From the IMG/VR virus record IMGVR_UViG_3300048905_000034, positions 1-63,250 of that record: 63,250 bases of DNA. One strand, 5' to 3'. The notes beneath the pieces were generated by a model that saw only the letters and a program-made list of their open reading frames with translations, was not told the DNA's origin and ran no database searches. Within the stretch, counting starts at the first letter, position 1; every line of letters begins with the position of its first letter. The position numbers and the translations under genes are program-made. Below, in pieces: positions 918 through 63,250 of the stretch. The stretch is from a virus.

Positions 918-2767
918 GCGGGAACCCTCTCTCCGGCCACGGTCATCTGGGAGGACATGAAGAGGGTGAAGGTGCCGAAGGTGTGCGGGGTCTGCTCCAC
1001 CAGCAACTGCGTGCAGTAGCTCTCCAGCACACCCTCCAGCCATATCGCCGGGATGCGGTGGCGTTCAGCGATAGCCGCGACGTGTGTCCACGCATCGTCC
1101 AGTAGGAACTCGGTGTCCTCGCTCCTGACGAACTTGTAGATGTCCACCGCCGCGCACGTCGGCTTCACCTGCATCTTGTTCTTCAGCTTGTTCCCGGCGC
1201 GCTCCAGCGCCCGCACCACGACCTGCTCGCAGGCGGCGATCAGGGCGGCGGCGCGGTTCTCGGGGAAGGCGGACGGGACATTGCCCCGGTCCCGGGCATC
1301 CCGGCGACGGTCGGAGACTTCCGGGTCGGGGATGCCGGTCTGAGGGTGTTCCTCCAGTGACGGCGTGGGCCTGCCCTCCGTGCCTGACGGTTGGTCGACC
1401 AACTGCGGGGTCACGTCGAGCTTGACCCCGAGGGCCTTCAGCGCCGCCTCGACCAGTTCCGGGGTGGTGGACCCGGAGGCAACCTTGCGCAGGTAGAACG
1501 CGATCCGGTCGTCGTCCTTCTGAGCGTCGTCGTCGCTGAAGCCGGTTTCGCGGCGCAGCGATTCGCCGTTGAGTTCGCCCCGGTCGTACAGTTCCAGCGC
1601 TTCCTTGGAACGGTTCGGGCGCAGGCGCATCTCGGAGGTGTCAGCCCCGATGGAGAAGGAGCGCAGCGTCGGGCCGGGGACATCATCGGCGAGCAGTGGG
1701 CGCAGGTAGCCCTGTGCGAGCGCGGTGGTGATGAGCTTCAGCAGCGGCTCAGCATGGGCCTTGATCGTGGATTCGTCGGCAGCCCACGCGCTCCAGTGGT
1801 TGGACTCGGACAGGCCCTGCAGGACTTCGGGCGGGATGTCCAGACCGAGGGCCAACCGGCGGATGGCTTCGTTGCGCAGCGCGATGGCCTGCTCGTCCAG
1901 TTGGGTCCAGAACGTCAGGTGCTTGATCGAGGCAATGGCTTCGGCGGGTGCCTTGATGACGATGGGCACCAGCGCGGAAGCGTCCTCGCGGTTCTGGATG
2001 GAGGTCTGCATGGCCTCGGCCAGCACCCGCATGAGGTCTTCGGCGTCGTTCGCCACCCTCTGCTCCTGCCCCTCGACGGGGGGAGGGGCAGGGAACGTCA
2101 TCTCGGACGGGACCAGCAGGATGCCAGCACCGGCAAGGCGGGAGTCGATCTGCGCCGCGACGTGCTGGGTGAGGCCGTAGATTTCGCCGAGGATCGGCAG
2201 GACCGCCTGCGCCGGGGAGGTGGCCTTCCAAGGCTTCTCGGGGTCCGGTCGCCAGATGCGGATGACGAGGACATCCTCGGGGTCCACGTCGAGGTCCTTG
2301 TTGTTGACCCGCCACTTGCCGCCATCGACCTTGGTGATCTGCGCGGGAGTGGCAATCTCCCAAATGTCGTCCTCGTCCCCGAACTCGTCAGGGTTCGGGT
2401 AGGAGACGACGTAGAGTTCCCCGGCGACGGTCATATGGATGCCGATTTGCCGAAGCATCTCTGCGCGACCATCGTCGTCGGAGAACAGCGACTCCATAAT
2501 CTCGACGGCGGGGCCGGTCTTCACCTGCTTCCGCTTGCCCGCCTTCTTTACCGAGGCGAACAGAACGGCCTTGGACAGCATCGCGCCGACGAAATCGCAC
2601 GAGTATCGGAACTCGCCGATGATGTGATACATCCGCCATGCTTCGTTCTGCCAAGCGATGGACTCGGCTATCCGGTGGTAGCTCTTTTGTCCGCTCTTGC
2701 CGATGCGCGCCGCCGAGGCGACCAGTGAGTTAGCCTGCGGAGTCTCGTCCCTGCGGGTGCGTGCCAT
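914..2767 (-). CDS. portal protein
   Basis: 617-aa ORF in the canonical TerL - portal - MuF order; size typical of portals. Confidence 0.85.
   Translation of the reverse strand: MARTRRDETPQANSLVASAARIGKSGQKSYHRIAESIAWQNEAWRMYHIIGEFRYSCDFVGAMLSKAVLFASVKKAGKRKQVKTGPAVEIMESLFSDDDGRAEMLRQIGIHMTVAGELYVVSYPNPDEFGDEDDIWEIATPAQITKVDGGKWRVNNKDLDVDPEDVLVIRIWRPDPEKPWKATSPAQAVLPILGEIYGLTQHVAAQIDSRLAGAGILLVPSEMTFPAPPPVEGQEQRVANDAEDLMRVLAEAMQTSIQNREDASALVPIVIKAPAEAIASIKHLTFWTQLDEQAIALRNEAIRRLALGLDIPPEVLQGLSESNHWSAWAADESTIKAHAEPLLKLITTALAQGYLRPLLADDVPGPTLRSFSIGADTSEMRLRPNRSKEALELYDRGELNGESLRRETGFSDDDAQKDDDRIAFYLRKVASGSTTPELVEAALKALGVKLDVTPQLVDQPSGTEGRPTPSLEEHPQTGIPDPEVSDRRRDARDRGNVPSAFPENRAAALIAACEQVVVRALERAGNKLKNKMQVKPTCAAVDIYKFVRSEDTEFLLDDAWTHVAAIAERHRIPAIWLEGVLESYCTQLLVEQTPHTFGTFTLFMSSQMTVAGERVPA
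1387..1406. repeat. PAL20 palindrome copy (degenerate left arm)
   Basis: acggttggtcgaccaactgc; inside the portal CDS, read as QLVDQP in a low-complexity C-terminal segment. Confidence 0.7.
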
Positions 2768-2772
2768 GGTGT

Positions 2773-3081
2773 CTATTCCCCATCATTCATAACTACGATT
2801 GCCGCTAGGTAGGAGACTGCCATCCAGCCGTTGAACAGCCACCACGAAATGTGCAGGTTGGAGAGCCACCCCCACAGAATCACCGGAGCGGCGATCCAGA
2901 TGGCCATACAGAAGGGGCAGTGGAACAGCGTCGACCATGGCCCATCGTCCGTTAGCGCATCCCACTTGGAGCGCACCCAAGCCGACGGCGGAAAGCTGTC
3001 CTGCGTCAGAAGGCGGGTCATCCGCGCCGTCGAGACAGTACCGACGATGACAGCACATATCACGACAACAATCTCCACCAT
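2773..3081 (-). CDS. small integral membrane protein (DUF1360-like)
   Basis: 102 aa, three hydrophobic helices, CPFC motif; sits between TerL and portal. Confidence 0.6.
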   Translation of the reverse strand: MVEIVVVICAVIVGTVSTARMTRLLTQDSFPPSAWVRSKWDALTDDGPWSTLFHCPFCMAIWIAAPVILWGWLSNLHISWWLFNGWMAVSYLAAIVVMNDGE

Positions 3082-3083
3082 GA

Positions 3084-5484: not shown

Positions 5485-5632
5485 TGAGGTCGCTCCATAC
5501 GACGCAGCCGCAGAGACGGTAGTCGACGATCTTCTCCACCATCGACTGGGTCCGTACGTCCCAGACGACTGCTATTTCGGTGCGGCTGAGGGGGCCATGC
5601 CAGTTCTCTTCGGTTTCATGCCAGCCGTTCAC
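5477..5632 (-). CDS. hypothetical protein, 51 aa
   Basis: GTG 5632 overlaps the ParB-like stop (GTGA); the stop overlaps the TerS start; below the track's 60-aa cutoff. Confidence 0.45.
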   Translation of the reverse strand: MNGWHETEENWHGPLSRTEIAVVWDVRTQSMVEKIVDYRLCGCVVWSDLNG

Positions 5633-6210
5633 AGGTCAGCCGTCCTTGCCTGCTCCGGGTAGCGCTCGATCAGTTCGGCGAACAGGGTGTCCCGGTCGTC
5701 GCCGTTCTCGAAGTCCACCACCACCTGATAGATGCCGGACGGGGCGGCGTCCCCGAAGCCGCCGCCGTTGGGAATGTCGGGGTCCGCCATCATGTCCAGC
5801 AGCAGCCGCTGGTATGAGGCATCGTCGTAGCCGGTACCTGCCAGCCCAAGGTCCGAATCGGAGAGGTCCGTCAGGAGTGCTGCCAGTGCGGAGTCGTCGA
5901 GGATGGCGAGCTTGCCGGTGCGGTTGTCCGCGATCATGTAGCGGACAGCGCCGGAGTCGTCCATGTGGTCGACCCAGATGACCGGGATTTCCGTGGCCCC
6001 CAAGGCGTGGAGCGCCTGATAGCGGTGGTTGCCCGCGATGATGTTGCCGGTACGGGCATCGGCGGTGATGGCGGTGACGAAGCCGTTGACCTGAATGGAC
6101 TCGATCAGCGCATCGAGGTCGCCGTTGTTGGGGTTCTGCGCGTGCTGCTGGACCCTGTCGATTGGTACCAGAAGCGGGCGGACCCCCTCCGCGAATCGAA
6201 CTGCTTTCAT
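5629..6210 (-). CDS. ParB N-terminal domain (ParB/Srx-like) nuclease-family protein
   Basis: Motifs NPNNGD...SIQVNGF...IIAGNHRYQAL...IPV; no C-terminal HTH seen. Confidence 0.8.
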   Translation of the reverse strand: MKAVRFAEGVRPLLVPIDRVQQHAQNPNNGDLDALIESIQVNGFVTAITADARTGNIIAGNHRYQALHALGATEIPVIWVDHMDDSGAVRYMIADNRTGKLAILDDSALAALLTDLSDSDLGLAGTGYDDASYQRLLLDMMADPDIPNGGGFGDAAPSGIYQVVVDFENGDDRDTLFAELIERYPEQARTADL

Positions 6211-6511: not shown

Positions 6512-6731
6512 TGTTCTCCTTCGGCAGTTGGTCGCCCAACTGCTGCTTTTCGTGCCTGCCCGGGACGCGCAGGGATTGCGCGTAGGTGCTGATTCTGGAG
6601 GACAACGCCCATGCCGCATTGGCCCCGGCGTAGTCCCCACGGTTGCTGCGGTTGTTGCCGACACGCTCGACCTTCCGCACCAGCCCCATCAGGCGGCGGT
6701 AGCGCGGCAGGTTCTCATCCGGTACGTGCAT
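6504..6731 (-). CDS. hypothetical protein, 75 aa
   Basis: ATG 6731 with RBS GAGGAA; its 3' end reads through PAL20 as QLGDQL. Confidence 0.5.
   Translation of the reverse strand: MHVPDENLPRYRRLMGLVRKVERVGNNRSNRGDYAGANAAWALSSRISTYAQSLRVPGRHEKQQLGDQLPKENNA
6524..6543. repeat. PAL20 copy; G-variant on the transcribed (-) strand
   Basis: gcagttggtcgcccaactgc on +; 13 nt upstream (sense) of ATG 6511. Confidence 0.9.
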
Positions 6732-8423: not shown

Positions 8424-8630
8424 TTATTGGAGAAACAGGCCCCGTTTTGTCCCGTCCTTTTCGACGATGGTGAAGGTGGCCCCCCGTTCTTGGGCCTCAT
8501 AGAGGTGGAGAAACAGTCGGACCCCCCGCCTGACCAGTTCGGTGAGGGTCGCCCCGGTGGATTCGGAGTGCCCGTCCATGGCCACTTTGAGGTCGGTCGG
8601 GATGTTGATGGTCAATCGGTGAAGTGTCAT
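8424..8630 (-). CDS. ribbon-helix-helix (CopG/Arc/MetJ-type) DNA-binding protein; first gene of the leftward arm
   Basis: LTINIPTDLKVAMDGHSESTGATLTELVRRGV is a beta-strand followed by two helices, typical of RHH. Confidence 0.75.
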   Translation of the reverse strand: MTLHRLTINIPTDLKVAMDGHSESTGATLTELVRRGVRLFLHLYEAQERGATFTIVEKDGTKRGLFLQ

Positions 8631-8636
8631 TCATAC

Positions 8637-8665
8637 ATTATATGACCGTTCATATGGGGTATGAA
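8637..8665 (-). promoter_or_regulatory. SigA-type promoter giving a leaderless RHH mRNA
   Basis: Sense TTCATA - 17 nt - TATAAT - 6 nt (gtatga) - ATG 8630. Confidence 0.5.
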
Positions 8666-8672: not shown

Positions 8673-8695
8673 GCAGTTGGTCGGGCAGTTGGTCG
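8673..8695. repeat. two tandem (direct) PAL20 half-sites
   Basis: gcagttggtcg g gcagttggtcg, 12-bp register, 8 bp upstream of the -35 of the leftward promoter. Confidence 0.85.
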
Positions 8696-8809
8696 AGGGT
8701 TTCCGTCATACGGATTCGATCCCAAAAGGAACTTGGATAGCGGGACGGGCAGCGTTACAGGAAGCGAAAAAATCGGGCGTTGCGGGGGGGTGCGGGGCCT
8801 CACCGGAAA

Positions 8810-9017: not shown

Positions 9018-9037
9018 GCAGTTGGGCGACCAACTGC
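9018..9037. repeat. PAL20 copy, G-variant
   Basis: gcagttgggcgaccaactgc; 19 nt upstream of GTG 9057. Confidence 0.9.
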
Positions 9038-9056: not shown

Positions 9057-9839
9057 GTGGCTACCAACACCAGCACCAGCAACACCAGCACAACCGCCGT
9101 AGTCGTACCCGCAAGCGCGGAAGCGGCACTGATCGAATCGAACGCGCTGGAAGCGCTCAAGCAGGCATACAAGCACCAGCAGGCGGAATTGACCCAGCAC
9201 GAGGACATCCGCAAGCAGGCGGAAGCGGCGAAGCAGACAGCCGCCGTGTGGATGGCGCGTATCGCCCACAGGGTAGCGACTCACCCGGCAGTTGCCACCA
9301 GTCGTTACCCGTACAACATCACGGGCGCGGCGAAGGCTTTGGATGTGCCTATCTCCACGTTCCGCCCGTATGCCCTTGCGGGTGAGGTGTTGGGGCGGAA
9401 GGATCGCGCCGGACTCCTGTCTGTTCCCGCGCTGGAAGACATCACCATTGTTGAAAAGTCTTTCGACGCAACGACTCGTGCGGAGCAGAAGGCTAAGCGC
9501 GTGAAGGCGGCCGCAAAGCAGGCACAGTTGGAAGCGAAGGCGAAGGAACTGGAAGCGCTGAAGGCGAAGCAGGGCGGCACTCCTGCCGCTCCTGCGGGTA
9601 CTCCTGCCGCTCCTGCTGGCGCTCCTGCCACTGCGGGTACTCCTGCCACTGCTGGCGCTCCTGCTGGCGCTCCTGCCGCTCCTGCCGGACCGTCCGTAAC
9701 GGATGACATCCTGCGGACCGCGCGGGAACTGGTGAAGATGTCGAAAGCACAGCGCGCTAACGACAAGCAGGCATGGGCGAAGACGCACGGCGAACTGGTG
9801 AAGGTGCTTGTCGAACTGTTCCCCGGGCTGAAGGTCTAG
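9057..9839 (+). CDS. first rightward gene: HTH-containing protein with coiled-coil and Pro/Ala tandem repeats, 260 aa
   Basis: GTG 9057 after AGGAGAACAAA; N-terminus VATN encoded by ggctaccaac; YNITGAAKALDVPISTFRPY is HTH-like. Confidence 0.65.
   Translation: MATNTSTSNTSTTAVVVPASAEAALIESNALEALKQAYKHQQAELTQHEDIRKQAEAAKQTAAVWMARIAHRVATHPAVATSRYPYNITGAAKALDVPISTFRPYALAGEVLGRKDRAGLLSVPALEDITIVEKSFDATTRAEQKAKRVKAAAKQAQLEAKAKELEALKAKQGGTPAAPAGTPAAPAGAPATAGTPATAGAPAGAPAAPAGPSVTDDILRTARELVKMSKAQRANDKQAWAKTHGELVKVLVELFPGLKV
9577..9688 (+). repeat. in-frame tandem repeats encoding (GTPAAPA / GAPATA)n
   Basis: Reiterated actcctgccgctcctgc / gctcctgccactgc units read directly. Confidence 0.8.
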
Positions 9840-9903: not shown

Positions 9904-9923
9904 GCCGTTGGTCGACCAACTCC
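9904..9923. repeat. PAL20 copy (2 mismatches)
   Basis: gccgttggtcgaccaactcc in the 9840-10215 non-coding gap. Confidence 0.7.
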
Positions 9924-9989: not shown

Positions 9990-10009
9990 GCAGTTGGTCG
10001 ACCGTTCGC
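9990..10009. repeat. PAL20 copy with a degenerate right arm
   Basis: gcagttggtcgaccgttcgc. Confidence 0.6.
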
Positions 10010-10482: not shown

Positions 10483-10502
10483 GCGGTTGGTCGACCAACC
10501 GC
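10483..10502. repeat. PAL20 copy with a compensatory arm change
   Basis: gcggttggtcgaccaaccgc: A>G at position 3 and T>C at position 18 keep a perfect palindrome. Confidence 0.85.
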
Positions 10503-11227: not shown

Positions 11228-11247
11228 GCAGTTGGGCGACCAACTGC
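11228..11247. repeat. PAL20 copy, G-variant, helix extended to 26 bp
   Basis: ccagcagttgggcgaccaactgctgg (11225-11250). Confidence 0.9.
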
Positions 11248-11617: not shown

Positions 11618-11637
11618 GCAGTTGGGCGACCAACTGC
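11618..11637. repeat. PAL20 copy, G-variant, helix extended to 28 bp
   Basis: gctggcagttgggcgaccaactgccagc (11614-11641). Confidence 0.9.
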
Positions 11638-12332: not shown

Positions 12333-12445
12333 TTCTCTTCCACGAGGGCCGTCACTGGAAAGTCACCGGCAGCACATGGGTGCTGCTCACCAACCAAACC
12401 ACCACCGACCAGTTGGTCGACCAACTGCGGGAAGCAGGGGAATGA
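12329..12445 (+). CDS. hypothetical protein, 38 aa
   Basis: GTG overlaps the stop (GTGA); reads PAL20 as QLVDQL. Confidence 0.4.
   Translation: MILFHEGRHWKVTGSTWVLLTNQTTTDQLVDQLREAGE
12409..12428. repeat. PAL20 copy (1 mismatch)
   Basis: ccagttggtcgaccaactgc; 19 nt before ATG 12447. Confidence 0.85.
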
Positions 12446-12446: not shown

Positions 12447-12731
12447 ATGTCCGTCTCACTCATCAAGGCCAAGGCCATAGCCCGTACCCCGGAGGCATAC
12501 AGCACCGAGGAACTGGACGACGCGCTGACCCGCATCGTCGAGGATGACCGCCTCTCGGAGGCGCAGGTCACCCGCATGCAGGCGAGGATCGACCCGGTCC
12601 TGCGTGCCCGTATCGCCCAGCGCCAGTCACGCATAGCATCAGCCGTAGTGTGGCCGGACATTCCCCGGTCACCCGCAGTTGGGCGACCAACTGCCGAGTC
12701 ATGCGAACAGAGGATACCCAGTGACCATTGA
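12447..12731 (+). CDS. hypothetical protein, 94 aa
   Basis: Track ORF; RBS GGGGAA; its 3' end reads PAL20 as AVGRPTA. Confidence 0.6.
   Translation: MSVSLIKAKAIARTPEAYSTEELDDALTRIVEDDRLSEAQVTRMQARIDPVLRARIAQRQSRIASAVVWPDIPRSPAVGRPTAESCEQRIPSDH
12675..12694. repeat. PAL20 copy, G-variant
   Basis: gcagttgggcgaccaactgc; 27 nt before GTG 12721. Confidence 0.9.
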
Positions 12732-13630: not shown

Positions 13631-13650
13631 GCAGTTGGGCGACCAACTGC
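13631..13650. repeat. PAL20 copy, G-variant, helix extended to 28 bp
   Basis: gccagcagttgggcgaccaactgctggc (13627-13654). Confidence 0.9.
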
Positions 13651-14310: not shown

Positions 14311-14330
14311 GCAGTTGGGCGACCAACTGC
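14311..14330. repeat. PAL20 copy, G-variant
   Basis: Starts 3 nt after stop 14307. Confidence 0.9.
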
Positions 14331-15195: not shown

Positions 15196-15611
15196 CCGAG
15201 TGGTGGGACAGTGCGGACGCCAGCAGGTACGGCCCGCGCTACTACGACCCCAAGGGCAGGCCCATGAGCATGCGCCGATGGGCGCAGTCGATGGGCAATG
15301 AACGGCACGTAGGCGAGAGCATCCTCCGCATACGTGGCCGGTGGTACCGGGTGTCCACCGTCTGGCTGGGGCTGGACCACAGCTTCTTCGGTGGCCCGCC
15401 GCTGATCTTCGAGACGATGATCTTCGGCGGCGACCGCGACACGGACCTCATGATGTGGCGCTACTCCACCGCAGACGAGGCCATGCGTGGGCACGTGCGT
15501 GCCGTGCGTTTTCTAAAAAGGAACGTGCGCGAGGCACGGCATCCACAACTTATCCACAACGGTCGGAAACCGACAGCAGTTGGTCGACCAACCGCCAACA
15601 GAAAGAAGTAA
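15192..15611 (+). CDS. hypothetical protein, 139 aa, with a LIHNGRKP tail followed by translated PAL20
   Basis: Internal ATG of the track ORF 14790; STVWLGLDHSFFGGPPLIFETMIFGG core. Confidence 0.6.
   Translation: MTEWWDSADASRYGPRYYDPKGRPMSMRRWAQSMGNERHVGESILRIRGRWYRVSTVWLGLDHSFFGGPPLIFETMIFGGDRDTDLMMWRYSTADEAMRGHVRAVRFLKRNVREARHPQLIHNGRKPTAVGRPTANRKK
15576..15595. repeat. PAL20 copy (1 mismatch)
   Basis: gcagttggtcgaccaaccgc; 19 nt before ATG 15615. Confidence 0.85.
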
Positions 15612-16246: not shown

Positions 16247-16753
16247 ATGATCTGCGGCAACGAAACCACCATGTTCGGCGGCGTAAGCACCTGCACCCGG
16301 GATGTCCGGCACCGGGGTGACCACCAGACCATGCCCATCGACGGGCGCATTACCCAGTGGAGTGTGAGTGGCGGCAGTCAGTGGTGGGTCACGGACCCAC
16401 GGCACCTTGGCTGGCAGGTCATCACGTGTCCCGAGTGTGGCGTGCGTCACATACCGGAGTCCAACAGGGTCACGAAAGGTGGGACCTCCTGCTTCCACTG
16501 TTGCTTCTGGGCGCACCGGTTGGCGCAGTACCTGAACGGCGAAGTCATGGTCATCGAAGGGACGTGCTACTCATGGGGCGCTGGGCATGGATTCGGTGGA
16601 CGGGAGTTCACCATCACCATGGAGGACGGAACCACCACTACCCGGCACGGCCTTTGGTGTGGCGGGGTCATCCCATGGGAATACCGGGAGGCGATGCCCG
16701 ACAACGCTACGTTCGGGAGTTGGTCGACCAACTGCGAGGAGGTCATGCCATGA
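16247..16753 (+). CDS. Cys-rich (zinc-ribbon) protein, 168 aa
   Basis: CPECG...CFHCC; its 3' end reads PAL20 as SWSTNC. Confidence 0.55.
   Translation: MICGNETTMFGGVSTCTRDVRHRGDHQTMPIDGRITQWSVSGGSQWWVTDPRHLGWQVITCPECGVRHIPESNRVTKGGTSCFHCCFWAHRLAQYLNGEVMVIEGTCYSWGAGHGFGGREFTITMEDGTTTTRHGLWCGGVIPWEYREAMPDNATFGSWSTNCEEVMP
16716..16735. repeat. PAL20 copy (1 mismatch)
   Basis: ggagttggtcgaccaactgc; 14 nt before ATG 16750. Confidence 0.85.
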
Positions 16754-17135: not shown

Positions 17136-18155
17136 ATGGAAATGCGAACACCCACCGACGTGCTCGCTCTCATCCCGACAGCGATGGAGCGCAAGCCCGA
17201 GGAACTTCTGGTCCTCATCTGCATCAAGGACAACGGCCTGCAAGCGATCCTCGGCATGCAACATTGCACTGACATAGGCGAAGCGGGTACCTACGCGGAA
17301 GCCGTCATCGAACAGATGGTGCAAATGAAACCGGACGCGCTGGTCATGGTGTTCTACACCGAGGAGGAATCCGACTGTAGCCATGAGCCATACGAGCACG
17401 TGGCCATCGTCCTGAAGGTGGCGGTCGAAACGCTCACCCCCATGGAGTGCCACCCCCCCATCCTCGTGAAGGGCGGGCGCTTTCACACCTACGGCACGGA
17501 CGAATGGCATGACCTTGACGAGGTGAAGCAGTCAGCAATGGCTGCGGACTTGGTGCTGCATGGGTTCCAGTTGGAACCAACCGGCCCGGTAATCCCCGAC
17601 CCGACGGCGGTGACCGATGACCTCACCGCACGTATCGACGATGCAGTGTCGTCCATCCCCGAGTTCCCGAAGTACATGACGGATACGTGGGCGACCCCGT
17701 ATGTGGTGGAGCTTCGGCAGTTGTACGACCACCTGCTGAACCGTGGGTTCGGTGCCACTGAAGATGAGGCGGTGCAAGTCATTGCCGCATTCCAATCCCC
17801 GACCCTTCGGGACCGGCTCATGGTGGACACGATCAGCCACACCGACAACGTCATGCAGTTCGGCGAAACGATCACCGGGCTGAGTGATGCGCCGCTGGAC
17901 CATAGCCGTCTGGTCACGGGGCTGGCCCTCATGGACAACCTCATGCAGTACACCGCTGACCGGCACCGGCTCCCCGTCCTCGTCACCTGCGCATGGTTCC
18001 ACTGGATGCTTGGCCGGACGCTGGATGCGGTCACGTACTGCGAGGAGGCGCTGAAGGTGGACCCGGAGTACGGGCTTGCCAAGGCGTTCGAGCGGTACAT
18101 CACTGACCTGATGCGGATACCCGTCCACGTTCTGCACTCGGACGGTCAGGAATGA
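17136..18155 (+). CDS. DUF4192-like protein, 339 aa
   Basis: N-terminus RTPTDVLALIPTAMERKPEELLVLICI and the length resemble the actinobacterial DUF4192 family (from memory, not searched). Confidence 0.5.
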   Translation: MEMRTPTDVLALIPTAMERKPEELLVLICIKDNGLQAILGMQHCTDIGEAGTYAEAVIEQMVQMKPDALVMVFYTEEESDCSHEPYEHVAIVLKVAVETLTPMECHPPILVKGGRFHTYGTDEWHDLDEVKQSAMAADLVLHGFQLEPTGPVIPDPTAVTDDLTARIDDAVSSIPEFPKYMTDTWATPYVVELRQLYDHLLNRGFGATEDEAVQVIAAFQSPTLRDRLMVDTISHTDNVMQFGETITGLSDAPLDHSRLVTGLALMDNLMQYTADRHRLPVLVTCAWFHWMLGRTLDAVTYCEEALKVDPEYGLAKAFERYITDLMRIPVHVLHSDGQE

Positions 18156-18486: not shown

Positions 18487-18704
18487 CAGAAGTTGGTCGA
18501 CCAACTGCAAAGCCCAAACCGCCGAGGGTGGCGCTATGGGTCACGGAAAAAGAACTGCGCATCATCGCCGAGAAGTTCGAGGGGTTCCGTGGATCGCTGG
18601 CTGATGCGATCAGCGAAGCCCACATCGAGGCGAGGAAGGCTCGGACCCAGCACAACAGGGCGCTGCGGCAGTACCGGCACGCAAGAAGGGATATGGCGTC
18701 ATGA
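18483..18704 (+). CDS. hypothetical protein, 73 aa (alternative GTG 18528)
   Basis: GTG overlaps the stop (GTGA); its 5' end reads PAL20 as EVGRPTA. Confidence 0.5.
   Translation: MTEVGRPTAKPKPPRVALWVTEKELRIIAEKFEGFRGSLADAISEAHIEARKARTQHNRALRQYRHARRDMAS
18489..18508. repeat. PAL20 copy (1 mismatch)
   Basis: gaagttggtcgaccaactgc. Confidence 0.85.
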
Positions 18705-19794: not shown

Positions 19795-20218
19795 TGCAGT
19801 TGGGCGACCAACTGCTGTGGGCTTCGTTGTCGCGCTGATACTGAGTGCTTCGTTGGTGATGGGGTCAGGCACGGTAGCGTCCGCCCGTCCCCCCACCCCC
19901 GAGCAAGCCATCGAGGCGCTGGCCCCCGGTCAGCACGTGGTCCTCGGGAATGTGGTGGTGGCGCGTACGGTGCATGGCTTGGTGGTCGACGTGTTGGACC
20001 AGAGTCCGACCACTGCCTCGTTCTGCGGGGTGGCGCTGGCCTCGGCCATCTTCGGGATCGGGGCCGGGATTCTGGGTGTGATCGCTGCATCCACCGGCGG
20101 CTCGGGCACCGTCATGATCGCCGGGTATTTGCTGACCGGCGCGCAGGTCGGCGTCCTAGCTGGACTATCCGGTAGCTACGCCGCATTGCTGGCGTGGATC
20201 AGCCGCTTCATCTGTTGA
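19781..20218 (+). CDS. secreted/membrane protein, 145 aa
   Basis: RBS AAGGAGGAAG; signal-like N-terminus whose n-region is PAL20 read as AVGRPTA; C-terminal TM helices. Confidence 0.6.
   Translation: MVMRSAVGRPTAVGFVVALILSASLVMGSGTVASARPPTPEQAIEALAPGQHVVLGNVVVARTVHGLVVDVLDQSPTTASFCGVALASAIFGIGAGILGVIAASTGGSGTVMIAGYLLTGAQVGVLAGLSGSYAALLAWISRFIC
19796..19815. repeat. PAL20 copy, G-variant
   Basis: Starts 2 nt after stop 19794. Confidence 0.9.
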
Positions 20219-20559: not shown

Positions 20560-20579
20560 GCAGTTGGGCGACCAACTGC
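20560..20579. repeat. PAL20 copy, G-variant
   Basis: 31 nt before ATG 20611. Confidence 0.9.
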
Positions 20580-22631: not shown

Positions 22632-22651
22632 ACAGTTGGTCGACCAACTGC
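22632..22651. repeat. PAL20 copy (1 mismatch)
   Basis: acagttggtcgaccaactgc. Confidence 0.85.
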
Positions 22652-25069: not shown

Positions 25070-25089
25070 CCAGTTGGTCGACCAACTCC
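25070..25089. repeat. PAL20 copy (2 mismatches)
   Basis: ccagttggtcgaccaactcc immediately after the ssb stop. Confidence 0.8.
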
Positions 25090-25660: not shown

Positions 25661-26413
25661 GTGTCATGGTTCAAGGTAGACGACCGGCTTCATTCGTCCC
25701 GCAAGCTCCTGAAAATCCCCCGCCGGTACCGGCTGGCATGCCTCGGCCTGTGGACAATGGCCGGGTCATGGAGTGCCGATCAGGAGACGGACGGGCACAT
25801 CCCCGACCACATGATCGAGGAGTGGGGAGCCTCCAAAACCCAAGTCGAATGGCTACTGAAGTCAGGTTTGTGGGAGTCCATCCCCGACGAAGATCAAAGT
25901 TACCCGGGGGTAACCGAGGCCGAAGTCCGATTTAGAAATTGGGCCGAGTACCAGCCCACGAAGGCAAAGAATGAACATACCCGAGAGAAAAACCGCGAGA
26001 AGCTGCGGCATTGGAGGGAACGTAACCGGGTTACAGATGAAGATGTAACCGGGTTACAGGATGGTTCGGACCCGGTTAGTAACCCCGCCCCCGTCCCGTC
26101 CCGTCCCGACCCGTCCCGTCCCGTCCATAAAGACTCGTCCAAAACGGACGAGGAGTTCGACCAGTGGTACTCCGGCTACCCCAAGAAGGAAGCCAAGGCT
26201 GCTGCGAAGAAAGCTTTCGCCACAGCGCGGAAGAATGTGGACTTTGATACACTTATGGCTGGGCTTGAGAGGTATGTGAAGTCAGTGAAGGGCAAAGACC
26301 GGCAGTACATCGCACTCCCTGCGTCATGGCTGAATGCCGGACGTTGGGAAGATGAGTTGGTCGCCCAACTGCCGGGGCCAAAGAATGACCCGTACTGGTG
26401 GGCTAACCAGTGA
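25661..26413 (+). CDS. replication initiator / replisome-organizer-like protein (DnaD-like C-terminus)
   Basis: GTG start; 250 aa; directly upstream of and overlapping the helicase gene; C-terminal KKAF..A...........PASWLNAGRWED pattern. Confidence 0.6.
   Translation: MSWFKVDDRLHSSRKLLKIPRRYRLACLGLWTMAGSWSADQETDGHIPDHMIEEWGASKTQVEWLLKSGLWESIPDEDQSYPGVTEAEVRFRNWAEYQPTKAKNEHTREKNREKLRHWRERNRVTDEDVTGLQDGSDPVSNPAPVPSRPDPSRPVHKDSSKTDEEFDQWYSGYPKKEAKAAAKKAFATARKNVDFDTLMAGLERYVKSVKGKDRQYIALPASWLNAGRWEDELVAQLPGPKNDPYWWANQ
25899..26084. repeat. cluster of GTAAC/GTTAC dyads inside the initiator gene (candidate origin)
   Basis: gttacccgggggtaac 25899-25914; gtaaccgggttac 26022-26034 and 26045-26057; ggttagtaacc 26074-26084; then (GTCCC)n 26092-26126. 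Confidence 0.55.
26353..26372. repeat. PAL20 copy, opposite-polarity (C) variant, degenerate
   Basis: tgagttggtcgcccaactgc; in the CDS, read as ELVAQL; 38 nt before GTG 26410. Confidence 0.75.
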
Positions 26414-27677: not shown

Positions 27678-27697
27678 GCAGTTGGGCGACCAACTGC
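27678..27697. repeat. PAL20 copy, G-variant
   Basis: 14 nt after stop 27663, 17 nt before ATG 27715. Confidence 0.9.
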
Positions 27698-36018: not shown

Positions 36019-36037
36019 CAGTTGGTCGACCAACTGC
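36018..36037. repeat. PAL20 copy, perfect
   Basis: Overlaps the rusA stop. Confidence 0.95.
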
Positions 36038-37255: not shown

Positions 37256-37275
37256 GCAGTTGGTCGACCAACTGC
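37256..37275. repeat. PAL20 copy, perfect
   Basis: Intergenic between 37287 and 37175. Confidence 0.95.
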
Positions 37276-44800: not shown

Positions 44801-47800
44801 CTACATCCGTGAGTTGGTCGAGAAAGCATCGGACAGCGCATCGGTAACGGTCCCGGCGATGATCCAAGGGTCGGTGGCCTGAGTGTGGACCTGCACTGCA
44901 CCTTCGGCGATGTTGAACGCGCGGGAGGTGGAATCGGCAGTTGGTCGACCAACTGCCGAGAATGCTCCGCCAACCGTAACCTCAGAAGTGGGCACGGTGA
45001 ACGCCCCGAGGGTGCCCAGCGCGTTGTGTACGCTGTCGCGGTTCGCCTTCAGCCCATCTGCCAGCCCCTGCGCCGCATCCGCGCCAGCCACGTACATGAC
45101 CGACTTGGACAGGTCGGCTGTGACGCTGTCCGTGACCAGCGCCGTGATGGTCTGCAGGGTGTTCAGCAGCGGGTCCATCTTGGATTCCAGTCCCCGCTGG
45201 AGGCCACCCATGATGGCTTCACCGGCAGGCACCAGCAGCTTCGCGTCGTAGTCCAGCGGACCCTTGTTCGCCCTGATCCAAGCCGCGATGCCGCCGACGA
45301 AGTCCGTCACCGCGCCCCACGAGGACCGCAGACCGCTCAGGAAGCCGCCCATGATGCTTGAACCCGCACCCCAGAGCAGGTACGACAGTCCGCCAAGCGC
45401 ACCAGCGATCCGGCCCGGGAGTCCAGAGATGTAGCCCATGATGTCGTTGGCCTTGTTCATCACCAAGCTGACGAAGTTCATGAACGCACCGGACAGGGAG
45501 TTCCACATCTGCGCCATGGCGCTCTGGACATTCCCGATCATGGACGTGCCCATGCCTTGAACGTCGCCCTTCATATTGCCGGACTTGTCCCGAACCGTAC
45601 CGGTGAACTGGTTCCACTTGTCGCTGAGGGTGCCACCAACGGTGCCCCAGAAGCCGCTCCAGTTCCGGGACACATCGCTTCCGAAGTTGCTGATGTTGTT
45701 GCGGATTTCCCCGGCCTTCGTGGAGGTGGTGTTCGTGAACTCCCCCCACTTCTGGCCCAGCGTGTTGCCCACGTCGCCCCAGAATCCGTTCCAGCCGTTC
45801 GTTACGTCCCCTGCCCAGCCCTCGATGCCGGACTTGATTTCCCCGGCCTTGCCGCTGACGGTTGTCTTGAACTCTTCCCACTTCGTGGACAGCGTCGTAC
45901 CGGTGTCGGTCCAGAACTGGGACCAGCCGGTCTGGAATCCCTCCCACGCCGAAGTCACGCCCGTCTTCAGTTCCTCGAACTTGGTGCTGACCGTGGTCTT
46001 GAACTCTTCCCACTTGGTCCCAAGGGTCGTGCCAACGTCCGTCCAGAAGGTAGACCAGCCGGTCTTGAACTCCTCCCACTTACCAGCAAGGCCGTCCACC
46101 ACTTCTTGGAACTTGGTGGTGACGGTGGTCTTGATTTCCTCCCACTTCGCCCCGACCGAGGCAGCGAAGTCGCCGAAGCCGTTGAGGAAGCCCGCGACAA
46201 TATCGCCAGCTATGCCGAACATCAGGGTGGACGGCGACTGGATGCCGAAGAACCTCTTCATGTCCTCGACCCAGCCGGTGAAGCCCTGCCCGATCTTCTC
46301 CCATGCGTTGACATCCTTGCCGGTCAGGCCCTGAATGAAGCCGTTCCACAGGTCAGCGCCGATCTGCGCCCAGTCAAGGTTTGCCACCCAGTCCTTGATG
46401 GGCTTCCAGACGTTGGTTTCCAGCCAGTTGTTGACCGTCGCGTTGATGCCTTCAGCCCACTGGTTGACATCGCCCATCATGCCGCCGAAGCCGCCCCAGA
46501 AGCTCTGCCAGAACGCCTGTCCGTTGGTGTCGCTGCGGTTGCTGCTCTCCCCGCCGCCGCCGCTGGTGAGCCAGTCGGACACAGCCTTCCACGCGGTATC
46601 CCACGCCTCGCGGATGGGCCTGAAGATGGTGTTCTCGAACCAGTCGTTGACGGTCTGGTTGATGTCGCCGATGTTGCCCTCAGACCAGAAGCTGTTCCAG
46701 AGGGCCGGGAAATTGACCTGACCATTGCCATCGCCACGGTTGCTGCTCTCATGGTCACCGCCGCTCTTGAACCAGTCGGTCACGGAGGTCATCGCCGTGT
46801 TCCACGCATCACGTACGGGCTTGAACACGTTGTTCTCAAACCAGTCATTGACGGTCTTGTTGATGGACTCAACGTTCGCGTCACCAAGGTGCAGGACATC
46901 GTTGGTGATCCAGTTCATGATGGCAGGGCCGAGGCCGTAGTCCTTCGTATCGCTCTTGAAGGACTCGGGGATGGTGGTCTGCCACCACTCGTTGATGCGG
47001 CGCATGTCGTTTTCCCAGCCGGTGCGGATGGGCTTGAAGATGCTGTCCTCGAACCACTTGTTCACGACGGCGTCGAGGTTGTCGATCTTCCTGCCCTGAT
47101 CGTCGAAGAACTCCTTGATGCCGTTGGACAGGTCGATGTTGGCCGACTGGAGGCTGGGCAGGATGTTGTCGAACAGGTTGCGGAAAGCCTCCACGACCCA
47201 GTGGTCAACCTTGTCGGAGAGGTCGTTCATCTCCGGGTTGCTGCCGGTGAACAGTTCGACGGTCTTCCGAATCTGGTCCTTGATGTTCTTGTCCAGCGCC
47301 TTGAACATCGCCTGCGATGTCGGATCGTCGTAGTTGATCGAACCCATGCCCTGCGTCAGGGCGGCTCCGAGGCCGGGCGCGAGCGTGTCGACGAGCTTCT
47401 TCGCTGCGATGCCCAAGCCGTAGCTGAGGTCGCCGACCAGAATCTCCTTCATCACCTCGCCCCACTTGATCTTGTTCGTCTTGCCGAAGGAGTCCAGCTT
47501 CCTCTGCTGCTCGTCGAGGTTCGCCTTCGCCTGCTCCATGCTGAAGGAACCAAAGAGGATTCCCCAGTCCTCCGGGCGGGCCTCCAACTTGGCGATCCGC
47601 ATGGCGGCGGCGAGGGAGTCGAAGCCCTTGCCGACCTTCTCCACGAGGGACTGAAGCGTCGGGGTGAACAGGGCGAACAGGCTCCCCAGCGGGGCCAGCA
47701 ATTCGGTGGCGAACTGCACCGCCTTCGGCAGGGTCTCCGTGGCGAGGGTCTTGATGGTCGGGCCGAGGTCCTCGACCATCTTGGCGATCACCGGCCCGGC

Positions 47801-51152: not shown

Positions 51153-51172
51153 GCAGTTGGTCGACCAACTGC
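51153..51172. repeat. PAL20 copy, perfect
   Basis: Intergenic; 16 nt before the RBS of the chaperone gene. Confidence 0.95.
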
Positions 51173-61546: not shown

Positions 61547-61551
61547 GGTTA

Positions 61552-61695
61552 CTACTGCTTCTGGTAGCTGCCGCCGCGTCGGGCGACCGCCGCTTTGGCT
61601 TCAATTTCGGAACTGAACACCTTCACGGTGCCGTCCCCAAGGGTCGCCTTGTAGGTGACCTTCGCGGCCTGCTTGGTTCCGCAGTTACATGGCAT
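61552..61695 (-). CDS. hypothetical protein, 47 aa
   Basis: MPCNCGTKQAAKVTYKATLGDGTVKVF...; RBS GAAGGGAAG. Confidence 0.5.
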   Translation of the reverse strand: MPCNCGTKQAAKVTYKATLGDGTVKVFSSEIEAKAAVARRGGSYQKQ

Positions 61696-61697
61696 GG

Positions 61698-63250
61698 TTA
61701 CTTCCCTTCGATGGTGGCGAATGCGCTCTTGGCCCGAGTGACCTGAAGCTGCCGGAACTTGGCCCTGACCTCGTTGAACCGATCCAGCGAACTCGTGGGA
61801 ATCTCCACGGTGTCCCCGGAATCCTGCCCATCGTGCAACGGAATCGCAGCGGCAACCAGCGAAAGCTGCTCCCCGCCGGAGGCCACCAGCATCGAGGGGC
61901 GGGGGATCGGGAATCCCGGGACGTTGACCGCGAGGGCGGCGATCAGTTCCATTTCATCCTGACCGGGGCGGACCTGCCTCCAGTCCCCGGAGATTGCAGC
62001 CGCCCGCAGTGCGTGGACCTGCTCATCGCTGATGTTGGGGCGCAGGACCCCGGCTACCCAAATGCCGTGCTCATCCTCACCTGCGGTCACGTCAGCGACG
62101 GCGGTGGAGGTCGAGTCGTAGTGGGAGACTGCGGCGCGGAGGCGTGCCCGACCGTCAGCGTGTCCGCCTCCGAGGGTGATCTGGCCGACCGCAACGGGTC
62201 CGAGGTCCGTCTGCACTTCGCCGGTCAGGAAGAAGGCGTAGTTCGTGGACGAGTGCGGCGCGGTGGTGCATTCGCCTTCCTCCTCCCCGATGGGCAGGCC
62301 GATGTGGCAGGTGTCCCATGTGGCTACGTGGCCGTACACCCGCCCGTCCTCCGCGACCGTGAACGGCGTCGGGCCGGTCAGTTCCGGGTTCTTGAAGTAG
62401 CCCCCGGGAAGCAATGCGGGTTCTACTGCTGCTGTCAGTGCCATTTCAACCGTTCCTCCTGAGTGGTGTCGTCCGCCGCCTTCACGCCCCGGCCATACGC
62501 CGAGCGCCCGGTAGTGCAGGTTGGCACACAGGCCCGCCAGCCACTGGGGATTCTGGACGTACTTGGCAAGCTGCAGGCGGCAGCGGTTGAAGTCGCCCGG
62601 GACGCCCCAAGCGATCTTCAACGCGCCCCGGCCATCCACCCAGTAGGACGTGATCCTGTGCGTGGGCTTGGGTTCGGTGATCCACCCGGGGCCGTCCATC
62701 GTCTTGATGGGCGGGATGTCGTAAACGTCCGTCTCAGAGGCGGCTGTTCCACGTGAAACATCGTCAGGTGAATTTGGTGAATCTTGTGAATCTCCCGGCA
62801 GTTGGTCGACCAACTGCTGATCCGCCCAGCGGCCCAGCCCGACGAAGGCTTCCGCGAAGGCGGGGATGGCGCAGATTGTGGCTGCGCAGATTCGCCCGGT
62901 GGCCGACATCGAGGAACCGTCCTCGGACATCGTCGCCTGCATGTCGTCGATGTCGACGGACACCCCGCTCCACATGCCTTCGGCCAGCATGCGGACAGTC
63001 TCGTAGGCTGCCTCCGACTGATCGAACACGCCCTCGCCCTTGACGAGGCCATCCTCGCGGAAGATGTTGTCGATGCGGCCAACGATGACCGAACCCTTGT
63101 GGCCCTCGTCATCCACGAACATCGCCTTCAGCGGCAGGGGCAGGTCGCGGTGGGTCAGGCCGTTCTTGTCGAACGACCGCCCGTCGCCCGAGGGGACACC
63201 TTCGGGGGCAAGGACGCCGTACCAAGGAACAGGTTCCAGCACCTCTTCCT
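61698..63250 (-). CDS. C-terminal part of the MuF-protease fusion: HK97-type (S78-like) prohead protease domain plus a further ~330-aa domain
   Basis: ...GHKGSVIVGRIDNI...GVSVDID...ICAIPAFAEA; open at the window end and in frame with 1..917; total 780 aa on the circular map. Confidence 0.75.
   Translation of the reverse strand, partial: EEVLEPVPWYGVLAPEGVPSGDGRSFDKNGLTHRDLPLPLKAMFVDDEGHKGSVIVGRIDNIFREDGLVKGEGVFDQSEAAYETVRMLAEGMWSGVSVDIDDMQATMSEDGSSMSATGRICAATICAIPAFAEAFVGLGRWADQQLVDQLPGDSQDSPNSPDDVSRGTAASETDVYDIPPIKTMDGPGWITEPKPTHRITSYWVDGRGALKIAWGVPGDFNRCRLQLAKYVQNPQWLAGLCANLHYRALGVWPGREGGGRHHSGGTVEMALTAAVEPALLPGGYFKNPELTGPTPFTVAEDGRVYGHVATWDTCHIGLPIGEEEGECTTAPHSSTNYAFFLTGEVQTDLGPVAVGQITLGGGHADGRARLRAAVSHYDSTSTAVADVTAGEDEHGIWVAGVLRPNISDEQVHALRAAAISGDWRQVRPGQDEMELIAALAVNVPGFPIPRPSMLVASGGEQLSLVAAAIPLHDGQDSGDTVEIPTSSLDRFNEVRAKFRQLQVTRAKSAFATIEGK
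62798..62817. repeat. PAL20 copy, perfect
   Basis: Inside the polyprotein, read as QLVDQL, in the linker after the S78-like domain. Confidence 0.95.
63124..63250. repeat. Terminal duplication (copy of 1-127)
   Basis: Identical by direct comparison. Confidence 0.95.

Follow-up and report, generated by a model that had tools for sequence, protein, structure and literature searches.

Start-associated inverted repeats much like those analysed here are known from mycobacteriophages of Cluster O and Microbacterium phages of Cluster EG (PMC4351075, PMC7302621). The initial annotation of the window (the whole stretch of 63,250 nucleotides) had not recognised its 20-bp palindrome as a described element, which is correct for the sequence, which is new, but not for the kind, which is already known from these actinobacteriophages with a putative function. 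An analogy with Cluster A stoperators had also been drawn. It fits as regards the number of copies, where they are placed and how they are coupled to the direction of transcription. Stoperators, however, are short and lack symmetry, and they belong to temperate phages, in which an immunity repressor binds them; the window sites are symmetric and the searches revealed no integrase, so that membership in the stoperators fails. Judging from sequence comparisons, the window sites most likely bind a phage-encoded regulator.

The window begins and ends with the same 127 bases, giving the 63,123-bp unit noted earlier, and the window represents a complete siphophage genome, apparently lytic in lifestyle, in which a MuF/protease fusion gene spans the window ends. 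The phage is uncultured and related to the Cluster AP phages of Arthrobacter, its kin including Arthrobacter phages Tank and AWGoat, and about 34 metagenomic relatives share 65-85% nucleotide identity with it. Scanning the whole window gave 31 distinct sites (Table 1) with at most three mismatches to GCAGTTGGKCGACCAACTGC, an extreme excess over the 0.03 sites expected by chance (mean of 100 dinucleotide-preserving shuffles of the window; maximum 2). This confirms the annotated number of 31 and sets it clearly apart from shuffled sequence, and the exact copies were also found as listed: seven TCGA-centred perfect palindromes, nine GCGA copies on the + strand and two reverse complements (3166, 6524). 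Both tandem half-sites (8673, 8685) were likewise found and lie in the divergent control region. The list of copies with one to three mismatches was mostly right, except that site 9990 has four and that site 17717, with three, had been omitted. A host REP element, raised as a possible identity, is ruled out: among 185,579 species genomes the motif gave 12 single hits only and was nowhere repeated.

Table 1. Palindrome copies and associated features of the window.
Feature	Position	Strand	Remarks
Copy in portal gene	1387..1406	-	sense strand GCAGTTGGTCGACCAACCGT, 2 mismatches; perfect GCGA copy at same place in L003
Perfect GCGA-centred copy in large terminase gene, last 27-33 codons	3166..3185	-	
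ParB_N-domain protein	5629..6210		
Perfect GCGA-centred copy, AAGGAG ribosome-binding site and ATG 12 nt downstream	6524..6543	-	syntenic copies in L042, L063
Small ribbon-helix-helix (RHH)-like protein, first gene of leftward arm	8424..8615	-	read from sequence
Leftward sigma-70-like promoter TTCATA-17-TATAAT, for RHH gene and structural arm	8637..8665	-	consensus match only
Tandem direct half-sites GCAGTTGGTCGG-GCAGTTGGTCGA	8673..8696	+	8 nt upstream of leftward promoter's -35 box
Perfect GCGA copy, leader of first early gene, start codon 19 nt on	9018..9037	+	site at same place in L050, L078, L079, L080, L082
First early gene, 260 aa, predicted helix-turn-helix at residues 88-114	9057..9839	+	
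Degenerate copy, 2 mismatches, after first early gene	9904..9923	+	unrelated hairpin before, C-rich run after
Decayed hybrid site GCAGTTGGTCGACCGTTCGC	9990..10009	+	left half intact; 4 mismatches in right half
GCGGTTGGTCGACCAACCGC, both arms changed symmetrically	10483..10502	+	37 nt after -10 box of TTGACA-18-TACGCT promoter
Perfect GCGA copy between stop codon and ribosome-binding site	11228..11247	+	flanks GGCCA/TGGCC, dyad extended to 13 bp
Perfect GCGA copy	11618..11637	+	dyad extended by flanks
1-mismatch copy, ATG 18 nt downstream	12409..12428	+	
Perfect GCGA copy, GTG start codon 26 nt downstream	12675..12694	+	
Perfect GCGA copy	13631..13650	+	35 nt after -10 box, promoter TTGACA-18-TAGAAT (13566-13595)
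Perfect GCGA copy, stop codon 3 nt before, ATG 33 nt after	14311..14330	+	
1-mismatch copy overlapping upstream ORF end	15576..15595	+	encodes AVGRPT; 19 nt to ATG at 15615
1-mismatch copy, 14 nt to ATG at 16750	16716..16735	+	
3-mismatch copy within DUF4192 gene	17717..17736	+	conserved in L078 at 19288
1-mismatch copy at ORF codons 3-9, upstream stop codon immediately before	18489..18508	+	
Perfect GCGA copy, codons 6-12 of membrane-protein ORF, upstream stop codon 1 nt before	19796..19815	+	
Perfect GCGA copy	20560..20579	+	35 nt after -10 box of promoter 20496-20524
1-mismatch copy	22632..22651	+	39 nt after -10 box of consensus promoter 22564-22592
2-mismatch copy adjoining SSB gene stop codon, next ATG 40 nt on	25070..25089	+	
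Degenerate copy, reversed centre (sense-strand TCGC), 3' end of replication initiator gene	26353..26372	+	
Perfect GCGA copy, 14 nt past primase/helicase gene stop codon, 17 nt to next ATG	27678..27697	+	
Degenerate copy, reversed centre, within HTH-protein gene	29613..29632	+	encodes GIGRPT; GCGA there in L040
Perfect palindrome overlapping Rad52-like recombinase gene stop codon	31319..31338	+	
Hybrid site GCAGACGG/CCAACTGC, stop codon 4 nt before	33629..33648	+	
Perfect palindrome overlapping stop codon of last early gene (RusA-like)	36018..36037	+	
Bidirectional terminator, distinct from palindrome	36045..36082		just after site 36018
Perfect palindrome, late arm, stop codon 11 nt before	37256..37275	-	
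Perfect palindrome in tape measure gene, stop codon 136 nt further on	44937..44956	-	encodes AVGRPT
Perfect palindrome between two tail genes, tail assembly chaperone gene starts 29 nt later	51153..51172	-	
Perfect palindrome between GDPD-domain gene and next gene, 20 nt ahead of latter's start codon	55301..55320	-	
Perfect palindrome deep in MuF/protease fusion gene	62798..62817	-	encodes QLVDQL

On our own rough gene map, 18 of the 31 sites occur in the interval from a stop codon to the following start, six extend into the final codons of the preceding ORF and two fall within an ORF's first 12 codons, just after the upstream stop. The layout described at first, of stop codon, palindrome, ribosome-binding site and start, thus holds broadly, with 12-40 nt from motif end to start codon, but not for the remaining five sites, which are deep within genes (portal, DUF4192, HTH, tape measure and MuF/protease). 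Classical termination is unsupported, as the annotation had said: on the sense strand the sites are not followed by a T-tract, and for termination the phage uses canonical terminators distinct from them.

Of the two roles originally offered, operator network or RNA hairpins, the comparative evidence favours the former, and we regard it as the probable, though far from certain, interpretation that the palindromes act in double-stranded DNA as operators to which a dimeric regulator encoded by the phage binds. The metagenomic relatives carry the exact motif sequence at the same positions while their flanks have diverged, and this extends to intragenic sites whose encoded amino acids change: at 62798 the nucleotides are retained in L003, L006, L025 and L055 though the encoded residues differ. 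From the GCAGTTGG/CCAACTGC of the window, the homologous element of the Tank-type phages, GGGGTCGG/CCGACCCC, is separated by three palindrome-preserving pair swaps, made on both arms; in Beagle/Ranunculus and in the EG phages of Microbacterium the arms have different sequences again, peculiar to these phages. Window-type and Tank-type elements sit at homologous tape measure codons, that is, at the position of site 44937, where Tank, AWGoat and Ranunculus have lineage-specific elements; the Rad52-like gene stop codon is abutted by its own element in each of these three phages, and so is the position of site 36018 occupied in all three and in Beagle. The operator reading is favoured because all copies of a genome change together within a lineage, because the arms are conserved while the 4-bp centre is more variable (very variable in AWGoat), and because in the distant relatives L079 and L080 most sites are hybrids of half-site variants, 13 of 16 and 10 of 12 respectively not being self-complementary; the sites are thus modular at the level of half-sites. 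One such alternative half-site, GCAGACGG, recurs in several genomes, and L078 carries GCAGTTGGTCGACCGTCTGC at places corresponding to site 9990. The tandem direct half-sites by the leftward -35 box can form no hairpin, yet they are conserved in four genomes (as GCAGTTGGTCGG-GCAGACGGTCG in L050, L080 and L082), which also counts for an operator, as does the spacing at four sigma-70-like early promoters, each with an element 35-39 nt beyond its -10 box. In Tank, AWGoat, Ranunculus and Beagle their own element follows such promoters by 39-57 nt (49-57 nt in seven of eight cases).

Other features would suit a mainly RNA-level element, a hairpin in polycistronic mRNAs with an 8-bp stem and a GCGA or UCGA loop, which we consider possible but rather unlikely. 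Its role would be to shield processed 3' or 5' ends, to attenuate weakly, or, next to the ribosome-binding site, to be the operator at which an RNA-binding repressor of translation encoded by the phage acts. Such a hairpin would fit sites placed between stop codon and ribosome-binding site, either 12-40 nt from the start codon or abutting the stop. With respect to transcription the centre shows a strand bias (GCGA to TCGC 11:2 in the window, G..A to T..C 21:1 in Tank), giving a GNRA-type centre on the sense strand in both arms of the two genomes; this counts against an operator, since a symmetric dimer on DNA does not need strand bias. At least three extra complementary flanking pairs are found at 5 of 31 sites against 2% expected, and extended stems with differing flanks occur at 11228, 11618, 13631, 29613 and 44937, that at 11618 covarying with a relative (GGCTG/CAGCC in the window, GGCCC/GGGCC in relatives). 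Also counted against an operator are these complementary flanks, the symmetric sites being somewhat commoner than expected if half-sites paired at random (P = 0.005 in the window, P = 0.04 in L079), and the unrelated 17-bp hairpin that the window has after the major tail gene, where relatives carry the palindrome; unrelated stable hairpins hold equivalent positions after both the major tail and the major capsid genes. A roadblock within the tape measure gene would, moreover, have to be leaky late in infection. The copy after the last early gene, just ahead of the terminator, is placed similarly to the T7 R1.3 RNase III site. Against the hairpin stands the conservation of the stem sequence itself, beyond pairing, over the 31 sites and diverged relatives. 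The separate 5' hairpin already present in early leaders is variable in sequence, and the one after the capsid gene evolves through covariation with G-U pairs; plain RNA hairpins here are therefore not sequence-conserved, unlike the palindrome. A hairpin also agrees poorly with the non-self-complementary majority of sites in L079 and L080, with tandem half-sites unable to fold, and with sites far within translated genes. The recurrent variants (T18 to C in the window lineage; CGCCGG..CCGGCA, 19:1, in Ranunculus) produce A-C mismatches on the sense strand, folding energies of the sites do not prefer that strand, and neither a T-tract nor an Rfam family matching the motif was found.

For a DNA operator, the leading candidate binder is the product of the first early gene, with the RHH-like protein second. 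The first early gene is found in every lineage, and the sole invariant block of its product is the helix-turn-helix NITGAAKxL...VxT(L/F)RPY, modelled confidently (pLDDT ~96). Where its second helix begins, the residues vary with the motif type, a link confounded with phylogeny. Foldseek returned nothing significant for this protein (best E = 2.2), and Pfam and PHROGs nothing for either candidate; the RHH-like protein has homologues at the same place in L050, L078, L080 and L082. As we picture it, a symmetric dimer would bind the palindrome, each subunit reading one half-site GCAG(TT)GGTCG. Made early, the protein would bind at about +28 to +32 of the early promoters and at about one third of gene junctions, where it would block RNA polymerase and so damp or shut off early transcription, that of its own gene included, via site 9018. 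At the tandem half-sites, which span about -43 to -66 relative to the leftward promoter, the same protein may activate or otherwise control the structural-gene arm, which would amount to an early-to-late switch. The transcribed site could also fold into an 8-bp hairpin, and the strand-biased GNRA-type centres suggest a secondary tuning at the RNA level.

Multi-copy palindromic sites are typical of ParB/parS and KorB/OB, and the ParB_N-domain protein of the window is conserved in Tank and AWGoat. The palindromes might load or organise this protein, or be replication or packaging signals, but we find such other DNA transactions highly improbable. The protein has no recognisable DNA-reading domain past its ParB_N domain, the asymmetries of the sites follow the direction of transcription in both genome arms, and their placement goes with promoters and with stop and start codons.

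Some copies form subfamilies of identical sequence (nine GCGA in the window, sets with GCAA and with GTAA in Tank, 19 asymmetric in Ranunculus), as for a selfish or recombination repeat, either a REP- or MITE-like mobile palindrome or a linker for cassette exchange, with no regulatory role of its own. Among the phage genes are those for a Rad52-like recombinase and an exonuclease, and in Cluster O insertions and deletions are reported to be delimited by the repeats (PMC4351075). We nevertheless hold this explanation to be improbable: searches of the phage genes found no transposase, RAYT or integrase, host genomes do not repeat the motif, a fixed promoter spacing is unexpected for a selfish insert, and positions are stable over lineages while the sequence shifts in all copies together. 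Homology between the window and its relatives ends near motifs 17 times, many of them duplicates, only slightly above the 10.2 +/- 3.1 expected by chance, and this slight excess mostly reflects gene boundaries in general.

Scanning the window with GCAGTTGGKCGACCAACTGC, at up to 3 mismatches, recovered 31 distinct sites, against a mean of 0.03 in dinucleotide-preserving shuffles. The exact copies listed in the initial annotation were found where it had placed them; among its degenerate copies, credited with 1-3 mismatches, the one at 9990 actually has 4, and a 3-mismatch site at 17717 had been omitted. The 20-bp palindrome has a 14-bp core, AGTTGG-N-CG-N-CCAACT, which is intact in 28 of the 31 sites. 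Asymmetry is confined to the variable centre positions 9 and 12 (N): 18 sites are symmetric, and the asymmetric centres read GCGA on the sense strand by 11:2. A rough gene map puts 18 of the 31 sites in the gap separating a stop codon from the following start. Another 6 overlap the end of the preceding ORF, 2 occupy codons among the first 12 of an ORF, immediately beyond the preceding stop codon, and 5 are well within genes; 12-40 nt separate the end of the motif from the start codon. There are 23 sites for about 75 called genes in the early arm and 8 for about 40 in the late arm. This per-gene density is similar, so the closer packing of sites in the early arm is largely a matter of gene size, its genes being smaller. 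Translated palindromes at 15576, 18489, 19796, 29613 and 44937 share one reading frame, (A/E/G)(V/I)GRPT; intragenic copies in the cultured phages Tank and AWGoat encode GVGYPT, GIGVPT and GVGTPT.

Comparison of the window ends showed that bases 1-127 are identical to 63124-63250, which bears out the genome unit of 63,123 bp proposed earlier. The 127-base repeat resembles the overlap left when a contig is assembled as a circle, which makes the window one complete genome; the MuF/protease gene (778 aa) spans the junction at the window end. Coding bias divides the genome into two arms: small early genes on the + strand at about 9.0-36.0 kb, and a - strand arm extending from 8.6 kb across the window ends as far as 36.1 kb, with the genes for terminase, portal, capsid, tail and lysis. 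The portal protein is 55% identical to those of the Arthrobacter phages Tank and Wilde, which have been placed in Cluster AP (PMC5513430), and 41-43% identical to those of Microbacterium Cluster EG phages. Gene order agrees with that of Tank and AWGoat, the block 52971-57114 has no counterpart in either, and the nucleotide-level match to cultured phages is limited to a short terminase stretch. No integrase was found in Pfam and PHROG scans of about 50 proteins. Features other than the palindrome are collected in the table.

Table. Additional features located in the window.
Feature	Position	Strand	Remarks
Second palindrome, CAACCGATTTAGGTTG, two exact copies	8811-8826, 8890-8905		440-bp divergent control region
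GGCTACCAAC, example positions	10514, 11209, 12964, 12979, 13658		
Lsr2 DNA-binding domain match	20940-21752		early protein; second similar stretch visible by eye
Canonical bidirectional terminator	36045-36082		12-bp stem where the two arms converge, directly after palindrome copy 36018
GDPD-domain protein (glycerophosphodiester phosphodiesterase)	55344-56861		505 aa, lysin position
Unrelated 17-bp hairpin after major tail gene	57150-57195	-	palindrome there in six related contigs
15-bp hairpin with Tank-type arms, GAGGGGGTCGGTG-CGGCC-CACCGACCCCCTC	59682-59714	-	after major capsid gene; followed by a small CUUCGG hairpin adjoining a ribosome-binding site
Canonical terminator	61512-61546	-	14-bp stem + TTTT, between small post-protease gene and major capsid gene

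About 40 related contigs, with 65-94% identity to the window, came from scans of IMG/VR and metagenomes; protein look-ups contributed further, long relatives, namely L078 and L079, whose contigs measure 63.6 and 64.3 kb, together with L080 and L082. The motif is found at matching positions in the related contigs, usually unchanged while the flanks have diverged, with syntenic copies in about 34 related contigs of 65-85% identity. At the MuF/protease palindrome the nucleotide sequence is preserved even though the residues it encodes vary (QLVDQL, QVGDQL, QLGDQS), which indicates selection on the DNA or RNA sequence.

Other related phages carry motifs of their own. GGTCGG-N4-CCGACC (Tank-type palindrome, GGGGTCGG) occurs 29 times in Tank and about 48 times in AWGoat, and is also present in Rizwana, SilentRX and BruhMoment. 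The non-coding 7% of the genome holds 20 of the 29 Tank copies and 31 of the 48 AWGoat copies, and these lie 19-36 nt upstream of a start codon or abut a stop codon. In the region fetched, Beagle and Ranunculus have 23-29 copies of AAC-YGCCGG-N4-CCGGCA-GTAA, and the EG phage OneinaGillian bears the published EG repeat (PMC7302621). Near the end of the tape measure gene, window-type and Tank-type elements occupy homologous codons (AVGRPT, GVGYPT, GIGVPT), and the two types differ by three both-arm swaps, at positions 2/19, 3/18 and 6/15. Judged by these homologous positions, the window-type and Tank-type motifs are the same element. Ranunculus has its own element at the same spot, and four more positions are shared across lineages: after the last early gene, the recombinase gene and the major tail gene, and upstream of the first early gene. 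By this comparison, the element positions are old and all copies have changed together in each lineage, which points to a sequence-specific partner acting in trans. We have moderate confidence in the reading that the palindromes are operators for a phage-encoded dimeric regulator.

The palindrome could instead act primarily as an RNA hairpin. The hairpin after the major capsid gene, syntenic with the family copy of Tank, shows compensatory changes and sense-strand G-U pairs in the related contigs L061, L055 and L036 and thus behaves as a genuine RNA structure, whereas in the palindrome it is the sequence that is fixed. The 5' leader hairpins also vary in sequence between promoters, and the palindrome does not. 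A primary RNA role would be consistent with the strand bias of the asymmetric centres, which is found in Tank as well (G..A, 21:1), and with at least 3 extra flanking pairs at 5 of the 31 sites versus 2% expected, the extension at 11618 covarying with a relative. It would also fit the locus after the major tail gene, where the window has an unrelated hairpin and its relatives have the palindrome. However, 13 of 16 sites in L079 and 10 of 12 in L080 are not self-complementary: they mix half-site variants composed of GCAG, then AC, AT, TT, GT or CT, then GG. The alternative half-site GCAGACGG recurs in several genomes, including at window position 33629, although symmetric sites are still somewhat commoner than predicted by random half-site pairing. 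The tandem direct half-sites (8673-8696) cannot fold, yet they are kept beside the -35 box of a leftward promoter (8637..8665), both in the window and in the related contigs L050, L080 and L082, as GCAGTTGGTCGG-GCAGACGGTCG. Recurrent variants of the palindrome produce sense-strand A-C mismatches (T18 to C in the window lineage; 19:1 in Ranunculus), a further point in favour of DNA recognition. Placement argues in the same direction, as each of the four sigma-70-like early promoters of the window has a site 35-39 nt after its -10 box; in other lineages the distance from such promoters to the lineage's own element is 39-57 nt (49-57 nt in 7 of 8 cases). Folding energy showed no sense-strand preference in the window, Tank or AWGoat, and this test did not discriminate. 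Taken together, recognition of double-stranded DNA by a dimeric protein is a better explanation than an RNA hairpin, and we consider a primary RNA role rather unlikely. The strand-biased centres and occasional long stems are probably secondary effects of the transcribed hairpin.

Explanations other than an operator or a primary RNA role seem improbable even when combined. A host repeat of the REP or MITE-like kind was rejected, an inherited host REP element having been raised in the initial annotation; across 185,579 genomes (one per species, 596 Gb) the motif is not a repeat and gave 12 unrelated single matches, the level expected by chance, and no transposase was detected among the roughly 50 proteins scanned with Pfam and PHROG. 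A tRNA-linked element was rejected since the window has no tRNA genes, and no Rfam 15 family matched at or above its gathering score anywhere in the window. As already surmised, the sites are not classical terminators: no site has a T-tract on the sense strand, a terminator scan flagged palindrome 6524 alone, on the antisense strand, and canonical terminators exist separately. Sites of the T7 RNase III type would be expected to have stems of about 20 bp or more, whereas those of the palindrome are 8 bp, reaching 13 bp at two sites only. Promoters for a phage RNA polymerase or sigma factor were discarded because no such gene was found, and this reading is also opposed by the copy after the last early gene, which has nothing downstream to transcribe. 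Considered as recombination junctions, the motifs gave a weak enrichment of nearby homology ends between the window and its relatives (17 vs 10.2 +/- 3.1). Isolated half-sites showed no genome-wide enrichment, the tandem pair excepted.

Two proteins are candidates for binding the sites. The first early gene (9057-9839, + strand), encoding a predicted helix-turn-helix (HTH) protein, has a counterpart in every lineage, with 13-36% identity between lineages, and the palindrome lies in its own leader in every relative examined. An invariant block, NITGAAKxL...VxT(L/F)RPYxxAG, is present in 19 window-type homologues, and an AlphaFold model predicts that it forms a helix (88-95), a turn and a second helix (99-114), with pLDDT of about 96. 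Foldseek returned nothing significant for this protein (best E-value 2.2), the weak matches being mostly HTH regulators. The second helix starts with I/V-S/A/G-T in window-type phages, with K/Q-N-T in all five Tank-type phages, although their proteins are only 24-36% identical across subgroups, and with RRR in the Beagle type. These opening residues go with motif type, a suggestive correspondence that is confounded with descent. The second candidate is the ribbon-helix-helix-like protein (8424-8615, - strand) adjoining the tandem half-sites; its beta-strand differs among phages with the same motif, and the protein was not seen in Tank-type phages. A winged-helix protein (28617-28991) was rejected as a co-varying binder, its putative recognition helix being near-identical across differing motifs and the protein being absent from Tank. 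The Lsr2-like protein was set aside because the Lsr2 domain binds AT-rich DNA.

Repeats of comparable design have been described in Cluster O mycobacteriophages, with more than 30 copies per genome of the 17-bp inverted repeat TGTTCGGNNNCCGAACA (PMC4351075), and in Cluster EG Microbacterium phages, with 8-10 copies per genome of the 18-bp inverted repeat GATCAACCNNGGTTGATC, located 14-22 bp upstream of start codons (PMC7302621). The window element resembles both in its invariant arms and short, variable centre, in its location mostly in short intergenic regions with some copies within genes, in being kept within the cluster despite flank divergence and absent from the host genome, and in belonging to phages that appear lytic; its copy number is similar to that of Cluster O, EG having fewer. 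It differs in arm sequence and length (8 + 4 + 8), and its centre is strand-biased, whereas no meaningful orientation was found for Cluster O (PMC4351075). All descriptive features of the class are present (invariant arms with a fixed centre, copy excess, start-proximal placement, conservation among relatives), and thus the window motif belongs to the Cluster O/EG-type inverted repeats, with a new sequence. The Cluster O and EG papers assign no function to the repeats and describe no tandem half-sites (PMC4351075, PMC7302621), and the Cluster AP description does not mention repeats (PMC5513430); on this sequence or on Cluster AP repeats, the literature offered nothing beyond the Cluster O and EG descriptions. 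The fixed promoter spacing and the between-lineage homology of the element are reported here only.

Functional parallels come from other phages. The stoperators of Cluster A (L5 gp71 sites) are asymmetric sites of 13-14 bp, bound by the immunity repressor of temperate phages; tens of copies lie at gene boundaries genome-wide, in an orientation coupled to transcription, and they are proposed to block RNA polymerase. The window motif shares their copy number, gene-boundary placement, lineage-specific consensus and proposed action, and co-evolution with a binding protein would be expected of both; its orientation may likewise be coupled to transcription, the 11:2 bias of the asymmetric centres standing beside 18 symmetric sites. 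But its sites are 20-bp palindromes in a phage without a detected integrase. In the Streptomyces phage phiC31, conserved inverted repeats (CIRs) are early intergenic operators of the c repressor, its own gene included. These too are highly conserved palindromes repeated in early intergenic regions of an actinophage; phiC31, however, is temperate, its repeat has another sequence, and its operator role is experimentally proven, whereas the window sites are candidate operators. REP elements, the stable tetraloop hairpins of T4 and the RNase III sites of T7 conserve structure or loop rather than stem sequence; REPs, unlike the window motif, are repeats of the host that have a transposase of their own, and RNase III sites need much longer stems. 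The likeness to such RNA elements lies in stable tetraloop hairpins at gene junctions, one of them after the last gene of an operon. By analogy, the window network would work like stoperators or phiC31 CIRs, while being a member of neither.

It is tempting to speculate further, although we hold the complete scheme to be doubtful, that a single first-early HTH protein runs the early-to-late programme of a lytic actinophage. Bound by this protein, the approximately 31 palindromes would be promoter-proximal and intercistronic roadblocks, and the tandem direct half-sites would give it an activator site at the late promoter. Across related phages, its co-evolution with the sites would have produced at least four specificities that are mutually orthogonal (GTTGG, GTCGG, GCCGG and ATCAACC types), and the transcribed palindrome would double as a tuned mRNA hairpin. 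If true, this scheme would amount to a set of orthogonal regulator-operator pairs of natural origin, and would account for the repeats of Clusters O, EG and AP, which have long lacked an explanation. The operator model, if true, would supply short orthogonal operator-regulator pairs for Actinobacteria and would exemplify roadblock control on a genome-wide scale in lytic phages. Since 2015, similar repeats have been recorded in several clusters of actinobacteriophages, and there are now new handles on their function: a defined half-site, its tandem arrangement at the structural-arm promoter, a fixed post-promoter position, a homologous series of elements with both arms changed together, and two candidate binding proteins. 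Culturable relatives exist in Tank, AWGoat and Beagle, on Arthrobacter.

Several other repeats accompany the palindrome. Copies related to CAACCGATTTAGGTTG of the control region occur in L078, and L050, L080 and L082 have CTACTTGGT-like or GTACCTGTTTTTG-like repeats at this location instead; these repeats may belong to an origin or serve as operators for a different regulator. GGCTACCAAC is present 11 times (9059-25471); 9 of these are on the + strand of the early arm, where well under one copy is expected. Four copies begin genes (ATGGCTACCAAC, encoding MATN...), the others adjoin palindromes or ribosome-binding sites, and the reverse complement, GTTGGTAGCC, resembles the inner part of the half-site. 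TTCCGTCA / TCCGTCAT is repeated at 8701, 10036, 10057, 10320 and 10533 (control region and non-coding 9840-10215), and a C-rich run starts at 9924 inside the long non-coding stretch. A second Tank-type dyad, GGTCGGTGCGCCGACC at 55503-55518 within the GDPD-domain gene, may be due to chance. In three early leaders, at 10465, 13614 and 22613, ATGCCCT(C/G) stands shortly before the palindrome, and in two of the three a Shine-Dalgarno-like GGGGAA precedes this sequence. The frames through the palindrome differ, one being a 2-codon mini-ORF, and ATGCCCT(C/G) probably serves as a leader element and not as a gene start. Finally, in Tank (45249), AWGoat (42973) and Ranunculus (31545) a strong -10 box lies 6-7 nt ahead of the start of the recombinase gene, and in these relatives the gene is probably expressed from a leaderless mRNA.
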